The translations under genes were made by a program, and so were the position numbers. The notes below the pieces were generated by a model. That model saw nothing but the letters and a program-made list of their open reading frames with translations. It was not told where the DNA came from and made no database searches. Positions 2,404 through 50,344 of a stretch of 64,000 nucleotides of DNA are shown piece by piece; position 1 is the stretch's first letter; each line of letters begins with the position of its first letter. Origin of the DNA: a virus (taxonomy: Duplodnaviria > Heunggongvirae > Uroviricota > Caudoviricetes); IMG/VR virus record IMGVR_UViG_3300045988_149737. One strand, 5' to 3'.

Positions 2404-3459
2404 CTATTTGCGAGTCTTTGCCTTGCGCAACTCTTCGAGAAGCGCCAGTTCTTCTTTACTCAACATGACCATTTTGCCTTCTTTTTCGTCAGGCACAACG
2501 TCGATAATGTCATCTTGATTCTCATCTGGGAGGCTATATTCCGTCTCATCATTATCGATTTTTGTTGATATTTGTGCCTGGCGTAACTTTGGCCGCCTAT
2601 AGTGGATGACGAAGTAGACCGAGTTTCCGCGCTTAACTTCCGTGTAATCGAGATATCCTATCTCTCGCAGCTGTTCCATAGCCTTTCTTACCGTCGCATT
2701 CTGAGTAATAGTGCGACTTGTTAGATTAAGTCTGGCGCGTAAACGGGCTAGTGATATTGGTGCCGGATCAGGCGGCAAACTTTCAATAAAAGTATAAAGC
2801 GCCTGAGCGGATTCTTTTCTTGAGAGTTCGTTTATAGCCCGGAGTTGCAGAAGAACCTTTTTGTCGAACTGGTAGAGTTCGAAAATCTTGGGATCTGCTT
2901 TCAGTTCGACCGTATCGTGCTTGACACTATATTTTGCCGTTTGCACAAGATGCGTTACGTAAAACTCATCAGAGCCTTTGCTACGGAACGAGATGGTATT
3001 TGTGGCAATACGGCTTAGCGAACTGTCCAGGCGTTTGCGTAACTTCGCTGATGACCTGGCGGTCGGAATGCCACACAGCCTTACAAACTCAACGAACGGC
3101 AACGTGACAGTATCGCCAACGACCTTGTGTTTGGCAAACGCGTGGATTATTCCCACCCACGTTTTAAAGTCGTTATCCATATCAAGCCGAAGGCCAGAGA
3201 TCCTTATGTCTTCGTACCCTTCGGCTTTTGCCAGAGACAGCTGTTTGAGTTCAGCAGAGGCATCCATAGAGACCATTTGCCCCTTTCTTCCTCTGGATGT
3301 CGATTTCAGCGTCGGAACGAAGAGGCCCAGACGCATCAAAGCAACAGGCTGAACAGTGTTATTAGTGTTAGGAACCAACATAACAACTTCGCCTGTCTTT
3401 TTATCTGTTTCTGAAAATGCTTCAACGATCGCTATGTTTTTATTGCCGTTTTCGCTCAT
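2404..3459 (-). CDS. repA: Plasmid-type replication initiator (RepA/RepFIB-like, 351 aa)
   Basis: Sole large ORF flanked on both sides by iteron arrays, GATC clusters and an AT-rich stretch, which is the classic iteron-plasmid architecture; not checked by sequence search. Confidence 0.55.
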
Positions 3460-3499
3460 TCCAAATGTCTCTTGTTATTCGACGGCTTTGGTGGCCTTT

Positions 3500-3630
3500 G
3501 CTGATTACAGTGGATAGTAGCACTCATCACAGCGGTTATCCTACCGTCTATAGTGGTTTTTCTCCTCTCTATAGTGGTTGCTTTGCTCCCTATAGTGGAT
3601 TATTCGCTCTCTATAGTGGATATCGATCAT
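3500..3630. repeat. Origin iterons set 1 (about 6 copies of CTATAGTGGAT/T at about 21-bp spacing)
   Basis: ttacagtggata, tcacagcggttat, tctatagtggttt, tctatagtggttg, cctatagtggatt, tctatagtggata. Confidence 0.6.
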
Positions 3631-3893
3631 GTCTGAAGGCAGATGGCACAACGGTTTGAGGTGGGCGGGGATCTTATTGGGTCTTTATGGGTCTCTTTGG
3701 TTCTCTTTGTGATCTGAATTACTGGATCGGGCCTGTGGATAAAAATCAGAGGATTTCAAGAACAGGTAACTCTACTCTTCTGTGGATATTTAAGGACATA
3801 AGAATCATGACTAAGAGTAGAGTTTAAAATATATCTATGTATATCAGTATGTTAATGAAGAATTAAGTCATTAAGTTATCCATAAAAGACAAT

Positions 3894-4015
3894 GTGCTCT
3901 ACTCTCTACAGTGGATATATACAGCTCTCCAGAGTGGTTGTTTTACTCTTCATAGCGGTTATTCAGCTCTCTACAGAGGTTTCTTTGCTCTCCATAGTGG
4001 ATGGCAACACCCTTT
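3894..4015. repeat. Origin iterons set 2 (about 5 copies)
   Basis: ctacagtggatat, ccagagtggttg, tcatagcggtta, ctacagaggttt, ccatagtggatgg at about 22-bp spacing. Confidence 0.55.
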
Positions 4016-4039
4016 CAGACCAGTAACCGCAACGGCTAG

Positions 4040-4115
4040 AGGCGATCGGGGATCTCTTTGGATCTTCTATTTGATCTTACTTGGGATCTCTTATTTGGAT
4101 CTATCCAGTGGATAA
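4040..4115. repeat. GATC-rich direct repeats (GGATCTCTTTGG about 5 copies); likely Dam-methylation cluster of the origin
   Basis: ggatctctttggatcttctatttgatcttacttgggatctcttatttggatct; a related GGGTCTCTTTGG set lies near 3675-3720. Confidence 0.5.
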
Positions 4116-33080: not shown

Positions 33081-33237
33081 CCCGTCTCCTTTATTTTAAT
33101 TTGCGCAATTGTCGCCTTGTAGTGTACTCCAGCTACGACATTTAATCATTTATGAGAAATGCTGTTATCACATGGCAGACATAAGGCCATTTTGTTACTA
33201 TCAAGCCCCTTTTCACTACAAAGAAGTAATGCCTACT

Positions 33238-35271
33238 ATGACCCAAGTCGCGAAGAAAATTCTGGTGACGTGCGCGCTGCCGTACGCTAACGGCTCAATC
33301 CACCTCGGCCATATGCTGGAGCACATCCAGGCTGATGTCTGGGTTCGTTACCAGCGAATGCGCGGCCACGAGGTTAATTTCATCTGTGCCGACGATGCCC
33401 ACGGTACGCCGATCATGCTGAAAGCACAGCAGCTTGGTATCACACCGGAGCAGATGATTGGCGAAATGAGTCAGGAACACCAGACTGATTTCGCAGGCTT
33501 TAACATCAGCTATGACAACTATCACTCGACGCACAGCGAAGAGAACCGTCAGTTGTCTGAGCTTATCTATACTCGCCTGAAAGAGAACGGTTTTATTAAA
33601 AACCGCACTATCTCTCAGTTGTACGACCCGGAAAAAGGCATGTTCCTGCCGGATCGTTTTGTAAAAGGCACCTGCCCGAAATGTAAAGCGCCAGATCAAT
33701 ACGGCGATAACTGTGAAGTCTGCGGCGCAACATATAGCCCGACTGAATTGATCGAGCCGAAATCGGTGGTTTCTGGCGCTACCCCGGTAATGCGTGATTC
33801 CGAACACTTCTTCTTTGATCTGCCTTCTTTCAGCGAAATGCTGCAGGCATGGACCCGCAGCGGCGCGTTGCAGGAGCAGGTGGCGAACAAAATGCAGGAA
33901 TGGTTTGAATCCGGCCTGCAACAGTGGGATATCTCCCGCGATGCGCCTTACTTCGGTTTTGAAATTCCGAACGCGCCGGGCAAATATTTCTACGTCTGGC
34001 TGGACGCGCCGATTGGCTACATGGGTTCCTTCAAGAATCTGTGCGACAAGCGCGGCGATACCACCAGCTTCGATGAATACTGGAAGAAAGACTCCACCGC
34101 CGAGCTGTACCACTTCATCGGTAAAGATATTGTTTACTTCCACAGCCTGTTCTGGCCTGCCATGCTGGAAGGCAGCAACTTCCGCAAGCCGACCAACCTG
34201 TTTGTTCATGGCTATGTGACGGTGAACGGCGCGAAGATGTCCAAGTCTCGCGGCACGTTCATTAAAGCCAGCACCTGGCTGAATCATTTTGACGCTGATA
34301 GCTTGCGCTACTACTACACCGCGAAACTCTCTTCGCGCATCGATGATATCGACCTGAACCTGGAAGATTTCGTTCAGCGCGTGAATGCCGATATCGTCAA
34401 CAAAGTGGTTAACCTGGCCTCCCGTAATGCAGGCTTTATCAACAAGCGTTTTGACGGCGTGCTGGCAAGCGAACTGGCTGACCCTGAACTGTACAAAACC
34501 TTTACCGATGCCGCTGAAGTGATTGGCGAAGCATGGGAAAGCCGCGAATTTGGTAAAGCTATCCGTGAAATCATGGCATTGGCTGACCTGGCTAACCGCT
34601 ATGTCGATGAACAGGCTCCGTGGGTGGTGGCGAAGCAGGAAGGTCGCGATGCCGATCTGCAAGCGATTTGCTCTATGGGCATTAACCTGTTCCGCGTGCT
34701 GATGACGTACCTGAAACCGGTACTGCCGAAACTGACTGAACGTGCGGAAGCGTTCCTGAATACGGAACTGACCTGGGATGGTATCCAGCAACCGCTGCTG
34801 GCACATAAAGTGAATCCGTTCAAAGCACTGTATAACCGCATCGACATGAAGCAGGTTGAAGCACTGGTGGAAGCATCCAAAGAAGAAGTGAAAGCCACCG
34901 CCGCGCCAGTTACTGGCCCGCTGGCTGATGATCCGATTCAGGAAACCATCACCTTTGACGACTTCGCCAAAGTTGACCTGCGTGTGGCACTGATTGAAAA
35001 CGCGGAGTTTGTTGAAGGCTCTGACAAACTGCTGCGTCTGACACTGGATCTCGGTGGTGAAAAGCGTAATGTCTTCTCCGGCATCCGTTCTGCTTATCCA
35101 GACCCACAGGCACTGATTGGTCGTCACACCATTATGGTGGCTAACCTGGCTCCGCGTAAAATGCGCTTCGGTATCTCCGAAGGCATGGTGATGGCTGCTG
35201 GCCCTGGCGGAAAAGACATCTTCCTGTTAAGCCCGGATGCCGGTGCTAAACCAGGCCACCAAGTTAAGTAA
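33238..35271 (+). CDS. metG: Methionine--tRNA ligase
   Basis: 677 aa from [26 protein letters not shown] (HIGH motif), KMSKS motif present, zinc-binding CPKC...CEVC; start moved from upstream ATG to canonical MTQ. Confidence 0.9.
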
Positions 35272-35966: not shown

Positions 35967-36104
35967 ATCTGAAAACATATTCAAACCGTTGATAATGGCG
36001 GTCACAATTTGATTCTTTTCTATAAGAATCCGTTGATCGCCACTACCCCCATTCCATACCCGCAATCACATCCTTAAATTTCAATAAGTTATAGTTGTTT
36101 ATAC

Positions 36105-36985
36105 AATCAAGAAAACAACTGAATAACAGATCAACGAAACATCAACGCTTTCACCCGATTTGGTCTAAAAAATTGACGTTTTCACACATCACTGCTTATA
36201 CCCGTAATCCCACGCAGCAGATAGCGCCACAGCGTCCAAATTTCACCACAGACGACCCAACACACTACCAACAAAAACACACGCTCAAAATCGCTCTCGT
36301 TGCGTTACACAACCATATAAACAACTTATTTTCAGGCATAACAAAACAACTAAATAACACATGTGCCATTACCAAAAACAACCAACCTCTTTATGGCAGG
36401 CTACCGAAAAGACCCACCTCTTCTTCCCAGGCTACCGGACAACCAACCTAACTTTCACAGGCAATCCGAAAACATTCATACGCGCGATACCCACGACACG
36501 CCATTCCCCAAACAGCGAAGAAACACCAGAATCACTGAAACCCCAACGAAGCCTGTAACCGCAAGGATTCTCTCAATCCCAAAAGACACGAAACAGAACA
36601 ATCACGGGAAACGCCATTACCCAATACACGAATAACTACAAAAGCCTTTCACACACTCCAGACAAACAACTCAAACACAATAACGAAAGGAATCGCCCAC
36701 CTGCCATTACTCCATACACGGAGAAGAACAATCACCAAAACGACGAGAACACCCCATAGAAGAACCACTGCAAAACGAACGAAACCACATACACCGACAG
36801 AGAGAACAACACACCCAATTCACCAACAGAAATAGTCGCCGTATAGAACATTCTGGAAGGAGTGAGCATTAACGCCTATAGAGAGGTTGAAACAGATAAA
36901 ACACGAAGAAAACACAACATGTATAGCGAAGAAGCCAGGTATGTATAAGTGGGGAGGGAAGGAGGGGTGTCGCCTCCTTTTTCGT
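36105..36985 (+). ncRNA. Candidate long A+C-rich, G-poor non-coding RNA
   Basis: About 780 nt where the + strand is roughly 75-80 percent A+C (by eye); promoter-like motif at about 36070-36115 upstream and a terminator hairpin aaggaggggtgtcgcctcc plus ttttt at about 36950-36985; no minus-strand ORFs. Confidence 0.25.
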
Positions 36986-37039
36986 ATTTATTCAACTCCT
37001 GATTTTATCCCCCGTAACACCCCTACGGTCAGCCTTCGG

Positions 37040-37190
37040 TCCATACAGGGAAAAGGCTGCATCCCGCTACAGAAACGGCTGGGTTGCCTTCGGGGAACGG
37101 CTGGAGGTTTTCAGGGAAACGGTCGAGTTGCCTGTGTGGATTTCGGGAAAAGGCTCGATGCCGGTTCAGGAACGGCGGCGTACCGGTATA
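37040..37190. repeat. Array of about 6 direct repeats, consensus CAGGGAAACGGCT, at about 22-bp spacing
   Basis: cagggaaaaggctg, cagaaacggctg, cggggaacggctg, cagggaaacggtcg, cgggaaaaggctcg, caggaacggcgg. Confidence 0.5.
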
Positions 37191-37559
37191 GCGTGAGGGA
37201 GAGTTGCGGCTACCCACCTGTAATGTGCGGGAAGAAGAGAGGCGCTAACGTGCAGGCGAACTTACTTACCGCTGGATTCCCTCTGAATGCCCAACTACAG
37301 CGTAATTGTGCCAGACAGCCAACGGGTCACAATCGATTTCAGTAGGTTTTCGGGGAGAGGATTATTCTGCCCACCAGCCACTTTCGGCCACCAAATCAGA
37401 ATAATGTAAAAAGTGTACTCGGTACTGAACCTGAAAACTCACTGCCAAAACAACATTCACCGGAATAAAATCCTTTTTCGCCTTTGCGTTATTGCGATAA
37501 TAACGCCAACAAGAAAACAACATATTTAGACGTTGTAGAAACGAAGTGAGGATGAAGAG

Positions 37560-37778
37560 ATGATTAAGATGCCTGTGACGGTTGAGGTGTGGGGCGTGGA
37601 TTCCCTGGCTGAGTGTCTGGATGCAGTGGGGCCGGAGTTGTACCGCAAGTTGTGGTCGTTCGTCCCGGCAGAAGGGGAATCGCCCAAAGGGAAGGATATC
37701 TGGCACCTGCTGAGTGAAGATGAAAAGCGGGAGCTGGTGGGCGCGGTACACAGCGAGTTCCCGGACGACGAAGATTAA
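37560..37778 (+). CDS. hypothetical small early protein (72 aa)
   Basis: gagg RBS; followed by terminator aggccaccagcacggtggct plus tttt. Confidence 0.5.
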   Translation: MIKMPVTVEVWGVDSLAECLDAVGPELYRKLWSFVPAEGESPKGKDIWHLLSEDEKRELVGAVHSEFPDDED

Positions 37779-37917
37779 GAGTGAGGCCACCAGCACGGTG
37801 GCTTTTGTCGCTATTAACCTCCGGGGCAGCGCAGCACCGTAACGATATACTTTGTGGCCGTTTTCTTACTGGTATTGTTTACGCAATTCAGAAAACATGT
37901 TGTTTAAGGATTGCTTT

Positions 37918-38247
37918 ATGTTTGCAAATATCGACATCAACCAAATCAAGAAATTAACTCAAAAAGAGTTTGATCAGTTTTATGAGTTAGAAGGTTGGTC
38001 TTCCACTCTGATCAATTCGCGGTGGGTGCTTGAGCTGATGACTCGTGATGACGCACCTGCTTTGATGATTTGCGACATGGGTGAAGATGCTGACTTTATG
38101 GATATGAGCGAATTTTGTGTGGACACATACAACCGCAGCCAGAAGTACTACTTCACATGCGATAGCGAAAATGACGTGATTTCTAAGGTCTATCTTCACC
38201 TCGTCCAGCATTGGGACGTTCAGGAGTTTCTTGAGGTATTCGCGTAA
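37918..38247 (+). CDS. hypothetical small early protein (109 aa)
   Basis: Start moved downstream of the promoter motif; terminator aagccagcattgctggctt follows. Confidence 0.5.
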   Translation: MFANIDINQIKKLTQKEFDQFYELEGWSSTLINSRWVLELMTRDDAPALMICDMGEDADFMDMSEFCVDTYNRSQKYYFTCDSENDVISKVYLHLVQHWDVQEFLEVFA

Positions 38248-38375
38248 TCCCAACCAAAGCCAGCATTGCTGGCTTAACTTAATCTGTAGCCGCAGGGAAG
38301 AACCTGCATATCGCTCATGCGCCTGATCAATATGCTTTGTAGCCGTTTTCTTACTGGTATTATTTACGCCATTGA

Positions 38376-38391
38376 GAAAACAAGTTGTTTA
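38376..38391. promoter_or_regulatory. AAACAA-N-TTGTTT element (approximate)
   Basis: gagaaaacaagttgtttacgg about 12 nt upstream of the ATG at 38402. Confidence 0.45.
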
Positions 38392-38401
38392 CGGAGTTGT
38401 G

Positions 38402-38713
38402 ATGAAAAGTTCATTGGTTCTTGGTCTGGACAAAGACCAGAAGAGAAAAGAGAAGCCTGCACTGGTTGCTCAACTAACTTTGCTGGACATCGTTGCCAAT
38501 GGAACATCTATTCGTCTGTTCCGTGAAACAGCGGTGTCTTTCGATAAAAACACCTTTACTCGTTATGTAATGAATGTTCGCCGCCAGCGTGGAAAAGGCT
38601 GGATGGCGTTTCAAAGAATGTGGCCGGAACATCAGCTCGAACTGGCCTTGATGGAAGTTAACCGCGTGGCCCAGCAAGAGATTCAGAGAGCATCAGTGAT
38701 GGCAATAGCCTGA
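38402..38713 (+). CDS. hypothetical small early protein (103 aa)
   Basis: ATG downstream of motif. Confidence 0.5.
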   Translation: MKSSLVLGLDKDQKRKEKPALVAQLTLLDIVANGTSIRLFRETAVSFDKNTFTRYVMNVRRQRGKGWMAFQRMWPEHQLELALMEVNRVAQQEIQRASVMAIA

Positions 38714-38747
38714 TAATGTGCAAGTGGTAATTAGTCGACAGTACGAC

Positions 38748-38778
38748 AGCCCCGCCATCCTTACGGGGCTTTTTTGTT
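38748..38778 (+). terminator. Rho-independent terminator
   Basis: agccccgccatccttacggggct followed by tttttgtttt. Confidence 0.6.
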
Positions 38779-38839
38779 TTGTAAGTACATACTTACGATC
38801 ATAGAATATAAAAATAACCAATACACTACGGAGAGTGAA

Positions 38840-39235
38840 ATGACCGTTAAACGCGAAAAACTGACAGTTGATGTTTACTATGCCTCTGAAACCGCCGAAG
38901 GTAAGAATGTGGCAAAAATCACCGTTGTTACGTACAACACCGAAACTGGTGCCGAAGTACAGGCCAGTACGATCGTGCGTAAAGGTGATGCCTCCGGCGG
39001 CGAGTACGCGACTCAATACCAGTCCATTCTCGATGCAACTGACCCGCTGCTGCTGAAAATCGAGAACTACTTCCGCCAGGTTGATGAAGAGGTGTTTGAA
39101 ACCATGATGAATATGGTTAATTCCGTATTCGCCTCCAGCCTGAACACCAGCACCACCTGGATTGGCCAGTACGGTCTGCGTATTACCTCCGGCATTCCTG
39201 CTGATACCTTAATCCCTGAAAGCGTATTCGCTTAA
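38840..39235 (+). CDS. hypothetical protein (131 aa)
   Basis: Start at ATG with ggagagtg RBS, downstream of the terminator; terminator aatggcgcgtaaaccgcgccatttt follows. Confidence 0.5.
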   Translation: MTVKREKLTVDVYYASETAEGKNVAKITVVTYNTETGAEVQASTIVRKGDASGGEYATQYQSILDATDPLLLKIENYFRQVDEEVFETMMNMVNSVFASSLNTSTTWIGQYGLRITSGIPADTLIPESVFA

Positions 39236-39352
39236 TCCTCTTTAAATGGCGCGTAAACCGCGCCATTTTCTTATGCCCGATAATAATTTGTTTTCTGCCT
39301 TATCTGATTTGTGAAAATGATTTCACTGAAGCAACTTAATAAGGAAACCATC

Positions 39353-39727
39353 ATGGGACTTGATATCTACATCGAGACGCAGCCAAAAAACGATCTGAAT
39401 AATGAGGCATCCAGAAAGCGGGTTGCTCACTTCCGTAAGTTCAATGCGCTCGTTGGGTGGATGGAGCGCAACGTAGGTGAAGTCGAAAATTGTGAGCTTT
39501 TAGAATTAACGATGAATGACATTTGTTTTCTGAAGGCTCATTTGATGCACATAAACGAAAGCAATTGCGAAGAGTACTTGCCTACTCGGGAAGGTTTTTT
39601 CTTCGGCAGTCAGGAGTACGATGAAGGTTACTGGCATGATGTGGGGGAGTTGAAAGAGCTTGTGGAAGATCTGATTAAGAACCACGACTTTCACAATAAC
39701 AGACTGACCTTCTGCGCCTGGTGGTAA
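39353..39727 (+). CDS. hypothetical protein (124 aa)
   Basis: aaggaaacc RBS; preceded by TTTTCTGCC...GTGAAAAT promoter-like motif. Confidence 0.5.
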   Translation: MGLDIYIETQPKNDLNNEASRKRVAHFRKFNALVGWMERNVGEVENCELLELTMNDICFLKAHLMHINESNCEEYLPTREGFFFGSQEYDEGYWHDVGELKELVEDLIKNHDFHNNRLTFCAWW

Positions 39728-39729
39728 AT

Positions 39730-39873
39730 ATGGGCGATTTCAAGAAACGCCTGAAGGAAAGAGCCGAGATGGCCAGAAAGCAAAACGCCTCTTCTGTCAT
39801 CAGATACGCAAGGCAGTTTAGTCGCAACAACAAATCAGTTGAGGAAAAGATCCTTAGCGTAATCGAGCGATAA
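39730..39873 (+). CDS. hypothetical small basic protein (47 aa), below the ORF-track cutoff
   Basis: ATG 3 nt after the previous stop; MGDFKKRLKERAEMARKQ...; terminator agaccaccagcattggtggtct follows. Confidence 0.3.
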   Translation: MGDFKKRLKERAEMARKQNASSVIRYARQFSRNNKSVEEKILSVIER

Positions 39874-40028
39874 TTATTAAGACCACCAGCATTGGTGGTC
39901 TTAAATGACTTTTAATAACCGAAGGTTAATTTTAAACCTGGCTATCAACTTCCAGAACCTTTCTTGTGTATTCAGCCTGAATTAACTTCTTTTCTGCCTT
40001 ATCTACACTGCGATAATTACACCAACAA

Positions 40029-40044
40029 GAAAACAACATGTTTA
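40029..40044. promoter_or_regulatory. AAACAA-N-(A)TGTTT element (approximate)
   Basis: caagaaaacaacatgtttacgc upstream of ORF 40057. Confidence 0.4.
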
Positions 40045-40056
40045 CGCAGTGAGGAT

Positions 40057-40344
40057 ATGCACATGACTGATTTCACCATTACCCCAAAAGCACAAAATGT
40101 ATTCCTTGAATCATGGCTGGACTTGCCGGAAACAGAACAGCAAGAAATGGATCATGTGGAATATGACGAGCAGGTAAGCACGCGATTCTTCCACTTTGAG
40201 GGCTGCGTTTACGATATTGCCGACTTCATGAGAGATGACCGCTTCCCTGGATGGCACGCAAGCTATCCACTTAACGCCTTCGCCATGCTGATGATCCGTG
40301 TGGGTGATTCAGGGGATACCATCGACATCGGTCTGCTCCACTAA
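40057..40344 (+). CDS. hypothetical small early protein (95 aa)
   Basis: gtgaggat RBS; terminator aggccaccagcattggtggcct follows, near-identical to the one at about 39880. Confidence 0.5.
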   Translation: MHMTDFTITPKAQNVFLESWLDLPETEQQEMDHVEYDEQVSTRFFHFEGCVYDIADFMRDDRFPGWHASYPLNAFAMLMIRVGDSGDTIDIGLLH

Positions 40345-40548
40345 AGACTAAGGCCACCAGCATTGGTGGCCTTAAATGACCATCTTGTTTCCCGCAGGCT
40401 AAAAACACCAACCTCTTACCTCCAGGCAACCGACAAACCCACCTGTTCCCGTCCGGCTACCGCAACTTTCCACTTTGACGCCTTATTCGTACAACGATAA
40501 TTAACACCAACAAGAAAACAATTTGTTATTTACGATAAGGAATTAATC

Positions 40549-41031
40549 ATGAATTTTATCGCTACTGTAAACGCACCCGCACATGGCAATATCGCTGTAA
40601 CGTTCTCTGACATTGAAAAACGAGTACTTGGTGCATGGCGCGACAATGAGACGGTAGAACTGTCAGAACAAGAAAAATGCATTATTGCACGCGACATCAT
40701 TGGCAATCGTCGTTACTCGCGGGTATTTGAGAAAGCATATGTGGTAAATTCTGGATTCGGAACGTTCGTCTTCCCGGTACGCTCCGGGCGATTCTGCCAG
40801 TCCAAGCTGATTGAGTTCGCTACGCAGATTTCTGTCTGGATTAAAACTCAATCGTCGTTCAAATTTTCCGACGATGAAGCAGTATCGCAGGGGATGCGGA
40901 TCGCCAACAATGCGATTAAATGCAAAAATATTACGTATACCGCTGGCGTTGACACATGGAAACTGTTTTGCGCTAACTTTATGCTGAATGTATACGCAAG
41001 CAACCGCATCCACATCCTTGATGGCGTGTAA
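40549..41031 (+). CDS. hypothetical protein (160 aa)
   Basis: Preceded by caagaaaacaatttgtt motif. Confidence 0.5.
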   Translation: MNFIATVNAPAHGNIAVTFSDIEKRVLGAWRDNETVELSEQEKCIIARDIIGNRRYSRVFEKAYVVNSGFGTFVFPVRSGRFCQSKLIEFATQISVWIKTQSSFKFSDDEAVSQGMRIANNAIKCKNITYTAGVDTWKLFCANFMLNVYASNRIHILDGV

Positions 41032-41039
41032 CTGAGAAG

Positions 41040-41170
41040 AGGGCCAGAAACGGCCCTTTCTCTATAGCCACCAGCTGCCGCAGGGAAATTTTCAGAAACG
41101 GCGAGGAACGCATTCATGAGCCGACGGGGAACGGCCAGGATTTTTTCGGGAAACGGCTGCATTCGCCTTT
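41040..41170. repeat. Second array of GGGAAACGG-type direct repeats (about 5 units)
   Basis: cagaaacggcc, cagggaaatttt, cagaaacggcg, cggggaacggcc, cgggaaacggctg. Confidence 0.45.
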
Positions 41171-41539
41171 ATATAGAAAAAACATCGGGAAGCTGGTGGA
41201 ATCCAACCAGCGGTTGTCGGACAGGTGAGCGGGGAAAATTATGATGACTTTCGTCGCCTGAGACATCCAGATTTCTTTCGTAGCGTAATCACATATGTGA
41301 TTAAGTGGTGTGATTATGTGAAAAATCACGCGCACATAATACGCGAGCGGATACGGAACAAAACAAAATGCCGATCCGCGCCGACAATTAAACGCGGATC
41401 ATAAAGCAAGAATAAAAGCCAATGATTAACCATACACCATAGCGCAATATAACGCGTTTTAAGCGCGTTAATGTGTTGAGTAATGGGTATGTACTGGTAA
41501 GGATATAAAAGCGCGTCTGTGGCGTTATTTTGGCGCTTA

Positions 41540-41650
41540 TTTTATGTTGTTGGAGTGAGTCAAAGACAATAAAAAAGCGCCATCATTGGCGCGTTATGGT
41601 GGAAGTATTAGAAACGAAAAAAGCGCCCATAGTGGGCGCTAGATTTTATT
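41540..41650. terminator. Cluster of three A-tract/hairpin/T-tract terminators at a convergent transcription boundary
   Basis: agcgcgtctgtggcgtt, agcgccatcattggcgcg, agcgcccatagtgggcgct each flanked by A and T runs; a fourth copy near 41881-41915. Confidence 0.5.
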
Positions 41651-41876
41651 TATGTAAACTGATTTCAAATCCCATTTCTACAAACGCTTTTAACATTAAA
41701 AATATATCAGCGTCATTCACGTCTGCTTTTTTTCGCTCCTGGTCGCTCAATAAGTCAATTTTGCGCGTCGTTTCATCGATAAACTCGACTGCGCGCCCAG
41801 CGTAACCAGCGATCCCAGCGATGCGATTAACAAAATATTCATTGCGCACGTTAACGCCAGAGATAAGAATAAACAT
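41646..41876 (-). CDS. hypothetical protein (76 aa), low-GC
   Basis: Flanked on both sides by near-identical hairpins aaagcgcccatagtgggcgc. Confidence 0.4.
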   Translation of the reverse strand: MFILISGVNVRNEYFVNRIAGIAGYAGRAVEFIDETTRKIDLLSDQERKKADVNDADIFLMLKAFVEMGFEISLHK

Positions 41877-41923: not shown

Positions 41924-42574
41924 TTACGCTTTGAAAGCATCAGCCAGATAGTTATAGAAATCATTTTTAATAAAGCGATATTGCTGCGTACCAGCTTTTG
42001 CGCTTCCCATTCCTTTGACTTTCTCAACAAGTCCAAGACGTTCGCAAAGATTGATAAGCTGGTTGGCTTGAGTGTATCCTGCGTCTAATTTTATTTCGTT
42101 GGCTTTTTTCGCTTCATTCATTAAATCGAAAACAGCGCCATTTGTGAACGTCTCGATCTCGTCGTTAATCATATCGATTAATGCGAATACACGAGATCCG
42201 GACATATCAGCGACGGAATAAACACACTTTCCAGCTTTAATGGATTTAACCAGATAAACCAGTTTTTCCAGAGAGTAACTATTAGCCATTGCATCACGGA
42301 AAAATACTTCTGGCGCTTGTTTGCTTGCTTTGATCGCATAGTAGAAAACAGAGCACAATTTTTCGTCTTCTACAGCGTTTACAACGTTGTTGATGAAGTA
42401 AGCAAGTTTAGTGGTCGCAGCTTGCATATTTGCTTTATCTGCTTTGGTGTGCGTACCATTTTTATAATGTTCGTTATATGTTTGAGTTGCCAGATCTGCT
42501 TTTTCGCGCAGTTCATCGGATACAATGGAAGCAGCTTCAACGATGGATTTTTTAGAAATGATAATGTTAGCCAT
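41924..42574 (-). CDS. hypothetical protein (216 aa), low-GC
   Basis: ORF with AT-rich upstream region. Confidence 0.5.
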   Translation of the reverse strand: MANIIISKKSIVEAASIVSDELREKADLATQTYNEHYKNGTHTKADKANMQAATTKLAYFINNVVNAVEDEKLCSVFYYAIKASKQAPEVFFRDAMANSYSLEKLVYLVKSIKAGKCVYSVADMSGSRVFALIDMINDEIETFTNGAVFDLMNEAKKANEIKLDAGYTQANQLINLCERLGLVEKVKGMGSAKAGTQQYRFIKNDFYNYLADAFKA

Positions 42575-43169: not shown

Positions 43170-43772
43170 TCAAAAAGGCAAAATTCGTTCAACCCAATCG
43201 AACAAAACAACTATTTTTCTACCGTTCTCGACACGTAGTGTAACCTGACAAGCATCTGCGCCTGCTGACACCCCCTCAATTTCACGGCCATCCGCCATGT
43301 ACACCCTTATAGATTTGTTTGCTTTGTAGGCTTGGTTGCAAATTGCAAAAAAATCGCGGCGTGATGGCCGATTATCGACATAATCAGGGTGAACTGTTAG
43401 TCGACCTTTGAAATCGTGAGCGATACTGTCAACCACACCTGATTCAATTGTACTAATGCGTTCAAGTGGGAGCCTTATACGATTTTCTTTGTCAAAAGGG
43501 GCTGGGCAAAGGTCAACTTTGTTACGAGATGGCATGAGGCCATAAACGTACATGCAAAACGCCTGGCCATCTTCGAGAGTGACCCTTACAGGAATTTGTT
43601 CTCTGCGCCAGAACATCAGTAGTTTTTCAACGTTAGTGTAATCTCGCGGCCAGAGTTCAGCTTGGATACCGTAGGTAATATCTTTGGTTGTCATGTCATC
43701 ACAGAGTTGTTGGCAGAATGTCGATGTCACCAGAATTGCTGGTGAACACCCTGAACGCTTTTGTGTCTCCAT
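43170..43772 (-). CDS. hypothetical protein (200 aa, start uncertain; an internal Met would give 174 aa ending at 43694)
   Basis: The track start overlaps the upstream lipoprotein gene by about 70 nt. Confidence 0.45.
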   Translation of the reverse strand: METQKRSGCSPAILVTSTFCQQLCDDMTTKDITYGIQAELWPRDYTNVEKLLMFWRREQIPVRVTLEDGQAFCMYVYGLMPSRNKVDLCPAPFDKENRIRLPLERISTIESGVVDSIAHDFKGRLTVHPDYVDNRPSRRDFFAICNQAYKANKSIRVYMADGREIEGVSAGADACQVTLRVENGRKIVVLFDWVERILPF

Positions 43773-46094: not shown

Positions 46095-46793
46095 GTGGAT
46101 TGTAGCAATAAAATGGATGTAAAAATCACGATTTTGCAGGTTGATGTTGCCAACCTTCGCCCGAATACCTGGAACACCAATTCGGTTGGTGCGCAGAATT
46201 TTGAAAAACTGAAAGGTTCTATCGAAAAATTGGGCTTTTTTAAGCCAATTTTGGCTCGTGAACTTGAAGATGGATTTTTTGAAATCCTCGGCGGCGAACA
46301 TCGCTGGCGTGCCGCTATTGAGCAAGGAATTTCAACGGTTCCGGTGCTTTCTGTGGGCAAAATTAGCGATGTCGTAGCTAAACAGATGTCACTGGTGGAC
46401 AACGAGCGATACGGTGAAGACGACCAAATCGCATTGCAACGCTTCATTGAAGAAATTCAGTCAGAACTTGACTATCAACTGTCTGAAATCGCCCCGTATG
46501 ACGACGAAATCTCGATGGTTTTAGCAAAAGAGGCTGCAATCGACCTTGAAGCACTGGAGGCGTTGTCTCGTGGTAGTGATGAGCCTGTCGATACCGACAA
46601 ACGAGAGAAAACCGAACGTGTGGGTGCGGAACATCAGACCATGCGCTTCAAAGTAACTTTCGATGCGTCAGATCGTGTTGCAGAAACCATAAAAAACATC
46701 ATCAAAGAGCAGGCTATTAACACCGGTAATGAAATGGAGAACGCTGGTGAGGCTCTGGTGTGGCTGGTCGACTACTACAAGGAGCGTATGTAA
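46095..46793 (+). CDS. ParB-like N-terminal domain (ParB/Srx nuclease-type) protein, GTG start
   Basis: LRPNTWNTN and ILGGEHRWRAAIEQGISTVPV match the ParB N-domain pattern. Confidence 0.6.
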   Translation: MDCSNKMDVKITILQVDVANLRPNTWNTNSVGAQNFEKLKGSIEKLGFFKPILARELEDGFFEILGGEHRWRAAIEQGISTVPVLSVGKISDVVAKQMSLVDNERYGEDDQIALQRFIEEIQSELDYQLSEIAPYDDEISMVLAKEAAIDLEALEALSRGSDEPVDTDKREKTERVGAEHQTMRFKVTFDASDRVAETIKNIIKEQAINTGNEMENAGEALVWLVDYYKERM

Positions 46794-47461
46794 TGACCAA
46801 AAAGTTTGAAATCGTATATCGCGACCCGGCAGATCTTATTCCCTATGAGATGAATGCCAAAAAGCATGATGAACAGCAGATCAGAGATCTGGCCGCAGCC
46901 ATTAAAAAGCGCGGATTTGACCAGCCAATTACGGTCGATAAGAACGACGTAATTATTACTGGCCACGGCCGCCGTGAGGCTGCAATTTTTGCTGGACTTG
47001 AGCGTGTACCGGTTATTGTTCGTGATGATCTGAGTGATGACGAGGTACGTGCAAAGCGCCTTGAAGATAACCGACTTGCCAGCATTGATTACGATGCAAT
47101 TAAGCTACAGAAAGAGCTTGAGTCGCTTGTTCTGGACGATATCGAGGTTTTCGGCTTTGAAGAGCGTGAGTTGAATGTTCTTGTTGGCAGTATGACAGAA
47201 GAAATGGACACCGACTCGCTAGTTATCGATCTTGGCGAAGAAACTAAACGACAGAAGGATGAACACACCGAGATCAGTCGCGAAGTTGCAGCGGAAGAAG
47301 TACGTGTTGTCGACGTATTGGGCTTTAAAACGCTTCCTGCTGGCTCTGCCATTGTTGTTGGTGATTTGCTTGCCCACATGGAAGAAATGACGGGAGAAAG
47401 CGGGGTAGACGCATTTGTGGCATATGCGGAGAAGATCTCTTCCGGGGAGATGGCTGCATGA
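46793..47461 (+). CDS. Second ParB-like N-terminal domain protein
   Basis: ITGHGRREAAIFAGLERVPVIV; start moved to the ATG overlapping the previous stop (TAATG). Confidence 0.6.
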   Translation: MTKKFEIVYRDPADLIPYEMNAKKHDEQQIRDLAAAIKKRGFDQPITVDKNDVIITGHGRREAAIFAGLERVPVIVRDDLSDDEVRAKRLEDNRLASIDYDAIKLQKELESLVLDDIEVFGFEERELNVLVGSMTEEMDTDSLVIDLGEETKRQKDEHTEISREVAAEEVRVVDVLGFKTLPAGSAIVVGDLLAHMEEMTGESGVDAFVAYAEKISSGEMAA

Positions 47462-49711: not shown

Positions 49712-50344
49712 ATGACGGTCGAAAAAGACGAGGTAAAAACTCGCCTGACACCAGCGGAGTGGGCCGAAGCTGAAGCCAAATGGACGTCAGGCGAATATAC
49801 ACTCTCAAAGCTGGAGGAAGAGTACGGCATTCGTCGTGAAACACTCTCCAGACATTTCAAAAAGCGAGGATTAGAGAAAGGCGCGGACTCTGTTGGGAAG
49901 ATGGTTCGTGAGTCTCTTAAATCTGACGCAGAGCTTCGCGCTAAAGCCCGTGCGGAAAAGATAGAAGAACGTCGTACACGTTATGACGGCTGGGCGTATG
50001 CGTTGGGGCAGATGGTGATGGTCGAAGTCACTACGGCCAAACGTGAGGGTAAGCCTTTAGGGGCGATTGAGGATTCTCTCAAGAGCTTACAGAGAGCAAG
50101 TAATACCCTTGCAAAATGCTTTGAAGTTTCGTCCAAAGCATTGGGCATGGATCATGCGGAAAATGACGAGGAAGAAATTCCGAACCTGGTATTTGGTGAG
50201 CTTACGCCTTCCCAGGTGGCGAAATTACGTCAGGAAGACGACGAGCCTGAAATCATCGATGACGAATTGCTTGAGACGTTGGAAGAAGAAGCTCTAAGCG
50301 AATTTGATGCGACAGATGATGGAAGTGAAGGGGAGGACGAATAA
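49712..50344 (+). CDS. putative terminase small subunit
   Basis: Immediately upstream of and overlapping the large terminase gene; N-terminal HTH-like region, very acidic C-terminus. Confidence 0.45.
   Translation: MTVEKDEVKTRLTPAEWAEAEAKWTSGEYTLSKLEEEYGIRRETLSRHFKKRGLEKGADSVGKMVRESLKSDAELRAKARAEKIEERRTRYDGWAYALGQMVMVEVTTAKREGKPLGAIEDSLKSLQRASNTLAKCFEVSSKALGMDHAENDEEEIPNLVFGELTPSQVAKLRQEDDEPEIIDDELLETLEEEALSEFDATDDGSEGEDE

Follow-up and report, generated by a model that had tools for sequence, protein, structure and literature searches.

Phage P4 carries two clusters of a short word, an octamer, a few kb apart, and one protein, alpha, is thought to bind both. In the iteron plasmids (P1 oriR/incA, F ori2/incC, pSC101, RK2 and R6K) repeats in the same orientation recur at about 22 bp. 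A further arrangement is that used by the P2-type C repressor and by the AraC/XylS and LytTR regulators, which act on asymmetric direct repeats lying 21-22 bp apart centre to centre, with a dimer on one face of the helix. Here we describe two arrays of one short word that flank a block of small genes in a 64-kb stretch of viral DNA (hereafter the window). The nearest relative of the window is Escherichia phage Cyrano (OV696614), an SSU5-like phage-plasmid of E. coli LF82, to which the region from 36.5 to 41.5 kb is 97.5% identical; the window corresponds to about 58.3-108.4 kb of the Cyrano genome, followed by about 1-14 kb. SSU5, pHCM2 and the Klebsiella phage-plasmids are more distant kin of this region. 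We found no mention of the arrays in the literature searched.

Array 1 (37046-37178, + strand) consists of six same-strand copies of yCrGGrAAMGGCtg, located at 37046-59, 37068-81, 37090-103, 37112-25, 37143-56 and 37165-78, with start-to-start steps of 22, 22, 22, 31 and 22 bp. The original prediction, made from the letters of the window, had proposed about six copies at about 22 bp between 37040 and 37190, and this holds. It had also placed a second array of about five copies at 41040-41170. Array 2 (41043-41159) is indeed there, with four + strand copies at 41043-56, 41091-104, 41124-37 and 41146-59, separated by steps of 48, 33 and 22 bp, and with one or two additional degenerate copies (at 41081, CAGGGAAAT, and at 41103, GAGGAACGC), so the predicted count was generous, and array 2 is also less evenly spaced than had been described. 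The core word of both arrays is GGRAAMGGC, of 9-10 bp. Counted over the whole window with up to one mismatch, the exact 9-mer shows no enrichment (16 matches, 10.8 expected). The related pattern RRAAMGGY, counted per 150 nt, reaches 6 at array 1 and 4 at array 2, compared with a maximum of 1-3 in 300 local-composition shuffles of the whole window, and the clustering of the motif copies far exceeds chance. On the + strand of the 64 kb, PWM scores of at least 12 bits are found at the two arrays only, a result that is circular within the window because the PWM was trained on the same ten copies. In the Cyrano genome (108 kb), clusters and PWM scores of at least 13.5 bits occur only at the two arrays, and two further, isolated matches score 12.4-12.6 bits; no comparable cluster was found elsewhere, either in the window or in this genome. 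GGGNAANGGC is present seven times in the window, against 1.5 expected, and always between 36500 and 41157.

The arrays are non-coding. An ORF at 36887-37345 overlaps array 1 and is annotated in Cyrano as the hypothetical gene CYRAN_104. This ORF crosses the intrinsic terminator at 36956-36982; it has no Pfam match, and the Arg-, Gly- and Cys-rich protein that it would encode seems implausible. The 22-bp period is not divisible by three, the longest open stretch over array 1 shifts in frame and length among 41 distinct relatives, and in the twelve RefSeq plasmids inspected PGAP placed no gene over the arrays. Moreover, PhiR41_1 has a clean deletion of exactly one 22-bp unit in array 1. A coding origin of the repeats was rejected because the frame is not conserved, the period is 22 bp, the ORF contains a terminator and PGAP calls no CDS. 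The location of the repeats within a conserved coding gene, which had been named as the finding that would speak against the prediction, was therefore checked with a negative outcome, given the changing frame in the 41 relatives, the lack of a PGAP gene and the 22-bp unit deletion. Published phage annotations include spurious gene calls over the arrays, for example CYRAN_104 and SSU5_109, which identification of the binder would also correct.

The 500 bp around array 1 have matches in 715 plasmid records, whose hosts are Klebsiella, Escherichia, Enterobacter, Salmonella, Citrobacter, Cronobacter and other genera; nearly all of these plasmids are non-mobilizable, and most measure about 100-115 kb. 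In every element examined both arrays were present at the same place and on the same strand. Position and orientation are kept in SSU5, in pHCM2 and in the Enterobacter, Citrobacter, Klebsiella, Cronobacter and AnCo3 elements, which bears out the predicted position of the arrays on either side of the small-gene block. Spacing too is kept in most relatives, as 22/22/(22)/31/22 in array 1, sometimes with an extra 28, and as 45-49/33-34/22 in array 2. Among 72 distinct array sequences, a few of which belong to an unrelated prophage family considered below, adjacent copies are spaced by 22 bp in 111 cases, by 33/34 bp in 38, by 31 bp in 20, by 44 bp in 16 and by 48 bp in 14. The number of copies in array 1 ranges from 2 (AnCo3, a Serratia element) to 7 (pHCM2), changing stepwise by 22 bp, and the Klebsiella and Cronobacter elements are 9 bp shorter in array 1. 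A scan of genome contigs for the 22-bp pair gave, among the matches listed, mostly unrelated sequences (from high-GC Streptomyces, Prevotella and others) and a few from Kluyvera.

Purifying selection specific to the motif acts on both arrays. Conservation is higher in the cores than in the spacers of array 1 (0.83 vs 0.68; Mann-Whitney p = 1.5e-5), and likewise in array 2 (0.97 vs 0.82; Mann-Whitney p = 2e-4), and the terminal pair of array 2, GGGAAACGGCCAGG...TTTTCGGGAAACGGC, 22 bp apart, is nearly invariant among 58 distinct sequences. The most divergent element that we found, K. quasipneumoniae L139, encodes neighbouring proteins only 28-54% identical to those of the window. This element preserves the word GRAAACGGC as it is, with spacings of 24/10/26 and 14/22 bp, and its spacers cannot be aligned. 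Since L139 retains the word without the 22-bp phase, the word is more constrained than the phase.

Both arrays lie in transcriptionally quiet, gene-free gaps directly downstream of + strand terminators. The one at 36956-36982 (+), 64 nt ahead of array 1 and conserved in the array 1 alignment, ends an A+C-rich, G-poor unit of 850 bp (36090-36940, +). The other is a conserved terminator-like hairpin (41034-41062, +) directly 3' of ORF 40549-41031, whose loop and 3' arm hold the first copy of array 2 (41043-56). On the right side of array 2, the genes of the minus strand have terminators of their own and stop short of the array. The A+C-rich unit (A 40%, C 30%, G 14%, T 16%; GC skew about -0.44) is gene-free in PGAP-annotated relatives; in Cyrano a hypothetical CDS, CYRAN_103, is called there. 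It carries 4-6 copies of GCCATTACyCcATACACGGAGAAGAAC, has a conserved promoter-like leader at its start and the terminator at its end, and gave lysogen RNA-seq signal near zero. One possibility is that this unit gives a long non-coding RNA lacking structure, another that it is a rut-like element; it may be part of the same non-coding locus as array 1. To its left is a variable cargo region, in which the ORF at 33109-35271 corresponds to a gene that carries the annotation methionyl-tRNA synthetase in Cyrano and related plasmids; this ORF adjoins a gene for a MinD/Mrp-like ATPase.

Seven or eight small genes, all monocistronic and none with a known function, make up the block between the arrays (37560-41031, +). 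They are assigned to PHROG families 6757, 7645, 5125, 2473, 7971, 1845 and 1641, and every gene comes with a repeated promoter-like cassette and a hairpin terminator. Where relatives have the block in its smallest form, all that remains are the homologues of 38402-38713, which encodes a 103-aa protein, and of 40549-41031. The latter encodes a 160-aa protein with a confident predicted fold (pLDDT 88.7), for which no structural neighbour was found. An integron/attC origin of the block was considered and dropped, and the paper checked on this point was not about SSU5. The palindrome GAAAACAAnnTGTTT occurs at 366, 22313, 23042, 35356, 35407, 37893, 38378, 40031 and 49659; in the cases checked it stands just 5' of + strand start codons, including that of the small terminase ORF at 49712, and within the block it is embedded in the repeated promoter-like cassette of 55-77 nt. 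This motif has the look of a promoter or operator used throughout the element.

Three genes follow on the right of array 2, one of them of 76 aa. Adjoining the array is a gene (41924-42574, -; CYRAN_113 in Cyrano) whose 216-aa product is conserved, is predicted to have a winged-helix domain at its C terminus, and is found alongside the arrays in every element examined. This protein shows no similarity to the Rep, O or alpha families, it had no significant match in a viral fold library, and its TubR match is no better than its ArsR or MarR matches. In the gene-free gap on the right of array 2, TGTGATTA/AATCACA is repeated four times at 41288-41330, the palindrome AATCACATATGTGATT among these copies, and minus-strand terminator-like hairpins (41345-41329 and 41401-41372) stand beside them; these repeats may be an operator or a small-RNA locus. 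The structural genes begin at about 49.7 kb. At the other end of the window lies repA (2407-3459, -), 99.7% identical to Cyrano RepA, with 21-bp iterons directly upstream (3547-3623 and 3895-4000) and 12/24-bp repeats at 4050-4102. Together, repA and its iterons (2407-4102) are probably the origin of the prophage-plasmid, and the repeats there are unrelated in sequence to the GGRAAMGGC arrays.

What do the arrays do? The likeliest reading, to which we give about even chances, is that they are phased protein-binding sites on double-stranded DNA, iteron-like in kind. A sequence-specific DNA-binding protein would use one of its subunits or domains for each copy of GGRAAMGGC. With about two helical turns between them, the copies face the same side of the helix, and a cooperative filament or oligomer could therefore assemble on them, as at plasmid and phage iterons. 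The same protein might then bridge the two same-orientation arrays, which are 1.5-4 kb apart, in a manner comparable to P4 ori/crr, P1 oriR/incA and F ori2/incC. Cooperative binding to phased sites had been part of the original prediction, and it fits the direct repeats, the conservation of the cores, the 22-bp steps, the quiet gaps and a layout that recurs in more than 700 plasmids; we infer the binding from these features, and the phasing part of the claim does not extend to the divergent relative, which lacks the 22-bp phase. A candidate for the binder, put forward by inference, is the winged-helix protein at 41924-42574. A conserved host factor is the other candidate, because the word is unchanged where the neighbouring proteins are only 28-54% identical.

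As to the output of this binding, the likeliest role is that of the phage-plasmid's vegetative (lytic) origin or of the locus controlling it, and array 2 would be the main site. Chi sites are relevant here. The window has 19 copies of Chi (GCTGGTGG), compared with 1.3 expected; seven are between 37.3 and 41.2 kb, several of them in terminator hairpins (39877-39904 and 40348-40375). Array 2 is bracketed by an inverted pair, one member just upstream of its main copies (41068-41075, -) and the other just downstream of the array (41192-41199, +), and therefore RecBCD coming from either side meets an active Chi. The pair is kept in 47 of the 58 distinct relatives, although its downstream member is not always at the same position. 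On the Cyrano map, taken as a circle, + and minus Chi are best separated by a split exactly at array 2 (Fisher p = 0.015), with the polarity running in the sense seen at E. coli oriC. The pHCM2 optimum is 3-6 kb from array 2 (p = 0.07), and the Cronobacter element has no clear Chi polarity (p = 0.28). The polarity signal, post hoc and moderately supported, is suggestive only. Cumulative GC skew rises monotonically with transcription and gives no origin signal. By eye, an A/T-rich stretch of about 18 bp follows array 2 (41163-41180), and array 1 includes one 7/9 DnaA-box-like site, which is not conserved.

On account of the bipartite layout, the Chi bracket and the use of this sequence type in other phages, we give vegetative replication or its control a small edge over a boundary or silencing role, as a provisional assignment. 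A bolder and rather doubtful proposal is that the 1.5-kb gene-free locus (A+C-rich unit, terminator and array 1), array 2 and the Chi bracket together make up a bipartite vegetative origin of the SSU5/pHCM2-type phage-plasmids. Such an origin would lack the classical DnaA-box/AT-rich module, would be fired by a novel winged-helix protein or a host protein, and would be coupled through Chi to the T4-like recombination machinery that the element has (UvsX/UvsY/UvsW, gp32, SbcCD).

The strongest competitor starts from the same DNA-binding step and assigns it another output, and it is a nearly equal alternative to the replication role: a repressor or architectural protein encoded by the element and bound at the arrays would loop or insulate the small-gene block, so that in the prophage-plasmid state the block stays silent or is shielded from transcription next to it. 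Models for this are the looping between lambda OL and OR and the binding of the P2 C repressor to direct repeats 22 bp apart. The arrays stand exactly at both borders of the block, whose monocistronic genes have their own cassettes and terminators, and they stay fixed while the content of the block differs among relatives. Lysogens express the block genes variably and the array region is silent, and a sigma-70-like site (41218-41245) is located about 60 nt downstream of array 2. However, neither array overlaps a promoter-like element, array 1 ending about 260 bp before the nearest one; the block promoters already have the palindrome GAAAACAAnnTGTTT; and several block genes are on in lysogens, so the block is not simply silenced. 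Looping would also leave the Chi bracket of array 2 unexplained. We regard a regulatory boundary as possible, if on balance unlikely.

The remaining readings are less likely. The first is that the arrays act as RNA, in which case + strand transcripts, arising by read-through or in the lytic cycle and containing 4-7 copies of GGRAAMGGC, would titrate an RNA-binding protein, either host CsrA or the element's own Sm-like FljA-family (PF03614) protein encoded 2 kb away. Every copy is on the strand of the flanking + genes, GGA is present in 7 of the 10 copies, and the word does not change from host to host, which a reader conserved among hosts, CsrA for instance, would predict. Against this, Rfam gave no match in the window at the gathering threshold, and in the region 36400-41800 it gave nothing relevant, Csr/Rsm families included, at E up to 5. 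The folding energies of the arrays, on either strand, are no better than those of shuffles (z = -0.09, +1.3 and -0.96), and RNAalifold on 41 and 58 distinct sequences recovered the terminator hairpins only, with no conserved array structure. The GGA words are not displayed in hairpin loops, three of the ten copies have none, and the GGA-less form of one array 2 copy, TTCAGAAACGG, is kept in most relatives; besides, the conserved word reaches through AAMGGC, beyond what CsrA reads. Both arrays are 3' of intrinsic terminators, and no promoter-like site was found directly ahead of either. In published RNA-seq data from LF82 in the lysogenic state (five conditions with two replicates each, 10 samples), values over array 1 were 2.6-4.7 in log2(FPKM+5), near the floor of 2.32, and the block genes reached 7-8, which excludes an abundant sponge RNA in lysogens; an abundant sponge RNA outside lysogeny is unsupported. 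An RNA role would also leave the dominant 22-bp and helical-multiple spacings unexplained. The suggestion that the repeated GGA motifs form a CsrA sponge of the CsrB/RsmZ type, made in the original prediction, is not supported by the Rfam, structural and transcriptional results, the terminators or the GGA-less copies, and an RNA function of any kind seems improbable.

The other proposed reader, the FljA-family protein, merits separate mention. FljA binds the fliC mRNA leader. The gene at 43170-43772 (-) encodes a full-length member of the family (Pfam PF03614, repressor of phase-1 flagellin, E = 2.5e-84), a strong match close to the arrays. This protein also gives a weak Hfq-like signal and is conserved in SSU5-like elements; its Cyrano counterpart, CYRAN_114, is expressed in LF82 lysogens. 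Judged from its family membership, the phage-plasmid may repress host flagellin synthesis. Array 2 shares a 12-mer, TGAGCCGACGGG, with the E. coli fliC leader, a point in favour of the RNA reading; yet this 12-mer is confined to the E. coli lineage (19 of the 58 sequences), and the best PWM score in the leader is 0.8 bits, that is, no match, so the arrays were rejected as a fliC-leader mimic for the FljA-like protein. ACCCAATAC is common to the fliC leader and the upstream A+C-rich repeats, and a chance 11-mer match to the leader occurs elsewhere in the window. An RNA-RNA pairing between GGGAAACGGC and GCCAUUACCC was rejected as well, the 10-bp duplex having two internal mismatches.

A second type of DNA-handling site was also considered, namely a pac site for the small terminase or a partition centromere for ParA/ParB-like proteins. 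The terminase genes are about 8.5-12.5 kb away (from 49712 onward), and we found no published data on the SSU5 termini. As for a centromere, no par operon lies beside the arrays: ParA is about 40 kb off in Cyrano, the two ParB_N genes (46095-47461) are 5 kb off in a different operon, and the TubR match of the winged-helix protein does not stand out from those to ArsR and MarR. Either identity is distinctly improbable. Finally, that the arrays are functionless, inherited relics of slipped-strand duplication of a 22-bp unit would account for the unit-length steps in copy number and for the restriction of all carriers to one element family, and is nevertheless highly improbable, given the significantly higher conservation of the cores than of the spacers, the recurrence of one word in two separate arrays, its survival where the flanking proteins are 28-54% identical and the spacers unalignable, and the almost invariant terminal pair of array 2 in 58 distinct sequences.

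Phage-plasmids of the SSU5/pHCM2 type are common in clinical Enterobacteriaceae and can carry resistance genes. Apart from the RepA origin, no non-coding words of the element are better conserved than those of the arrays, which stand at the borders of its variable block. Knowing the protein that binds them would offer a way into the switch from plasmid to lytic replication or into the control of the accessory block.

How do the arrays compare with the described systems? With CsrB, CsrC and RsmZ they have in common several purine-rich GGA words within 100-150 nt, and they differ from them in having no covariance-model match, loop display, promoter of their own or lysogen expression, and in their three GGA-less copies out of ten. 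Like the sites of the P2 C repressor and of the AraC/XylS and LytTR regulators, they are asymmetric direct repeats at about 22 bp; those sites, in contrast, are pairs that overlap a promoter, whereas here up to seven copies stand at a distance from promoters, and none of these regulator families was detected in the neighbourhood of the arrays.

A scan of viral contigs for GGAAACGG-N14-GGAAACGG returned the SSU5-like loci and the unrelated prophage family mentioned above (contigs L021, L025, L027, L028, L030, L045, L052, L054, L056, L062, L063, L088 and L115). Members of this family have 4-6 copies with the GGAAACGG core and a 22-bp period inside an ORF of 320-367 aa that has no Pfam match; the iterons, ccgaatGGAAACGGctcaagag, are followed by a GATC/AT-rich stretch and then by the DnaA-box-like ctgtggataac. 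Judged by its sequence layout, this is apparently a lambda-O-like arrangement with the origin inside the gene. These lambda-O-type origins (L021, L028, L088 and others) thus resemble the arrays in core and period, but their repeats are part of a dyad, ATTCGGCT-N4-AGCCGAAT, lie within a gene and have origin flanks, whereas the arrays of the window are asymmetric and intergenic and are not flanked by the GATC/AT-rich stretch and DnaA box. Homology to a lambda-O-like initiator was rejected, the prophage ORF having no homologue in Cyrano, and the resemblance is one of analogy and not of homology because the family was found by searching for the same pattern.

With P4 ori/crr the arrays share the layout of two clusters of one short word a few kb apart, although there is no alpha-like primase-helicase near them and the sequences are unrelated. 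Compared with the iterons, their core is shorter (9-10 bp instead of 17-22 bp), neither an adjacent AT-rich unwinding element nor a conserved DnaA box is seen at the arrays, and no Rep_3-type initiator is encoded between or beside them, RepA and its own iterons being 33 kb away. The likeness to the iteron plasmids nonetheless goes beyond the common orientation and the recurrence at about 22 bp: one word is repeated in two arrays flanking a gene block, copy number varies by whole units, and array 1, like an iteron-type origin, has at least three direct repeats of its word spaced by about two turns of the helix. The arrays are therefore best filed, provisionally, as a new addition to the iteron-like class of repeats.
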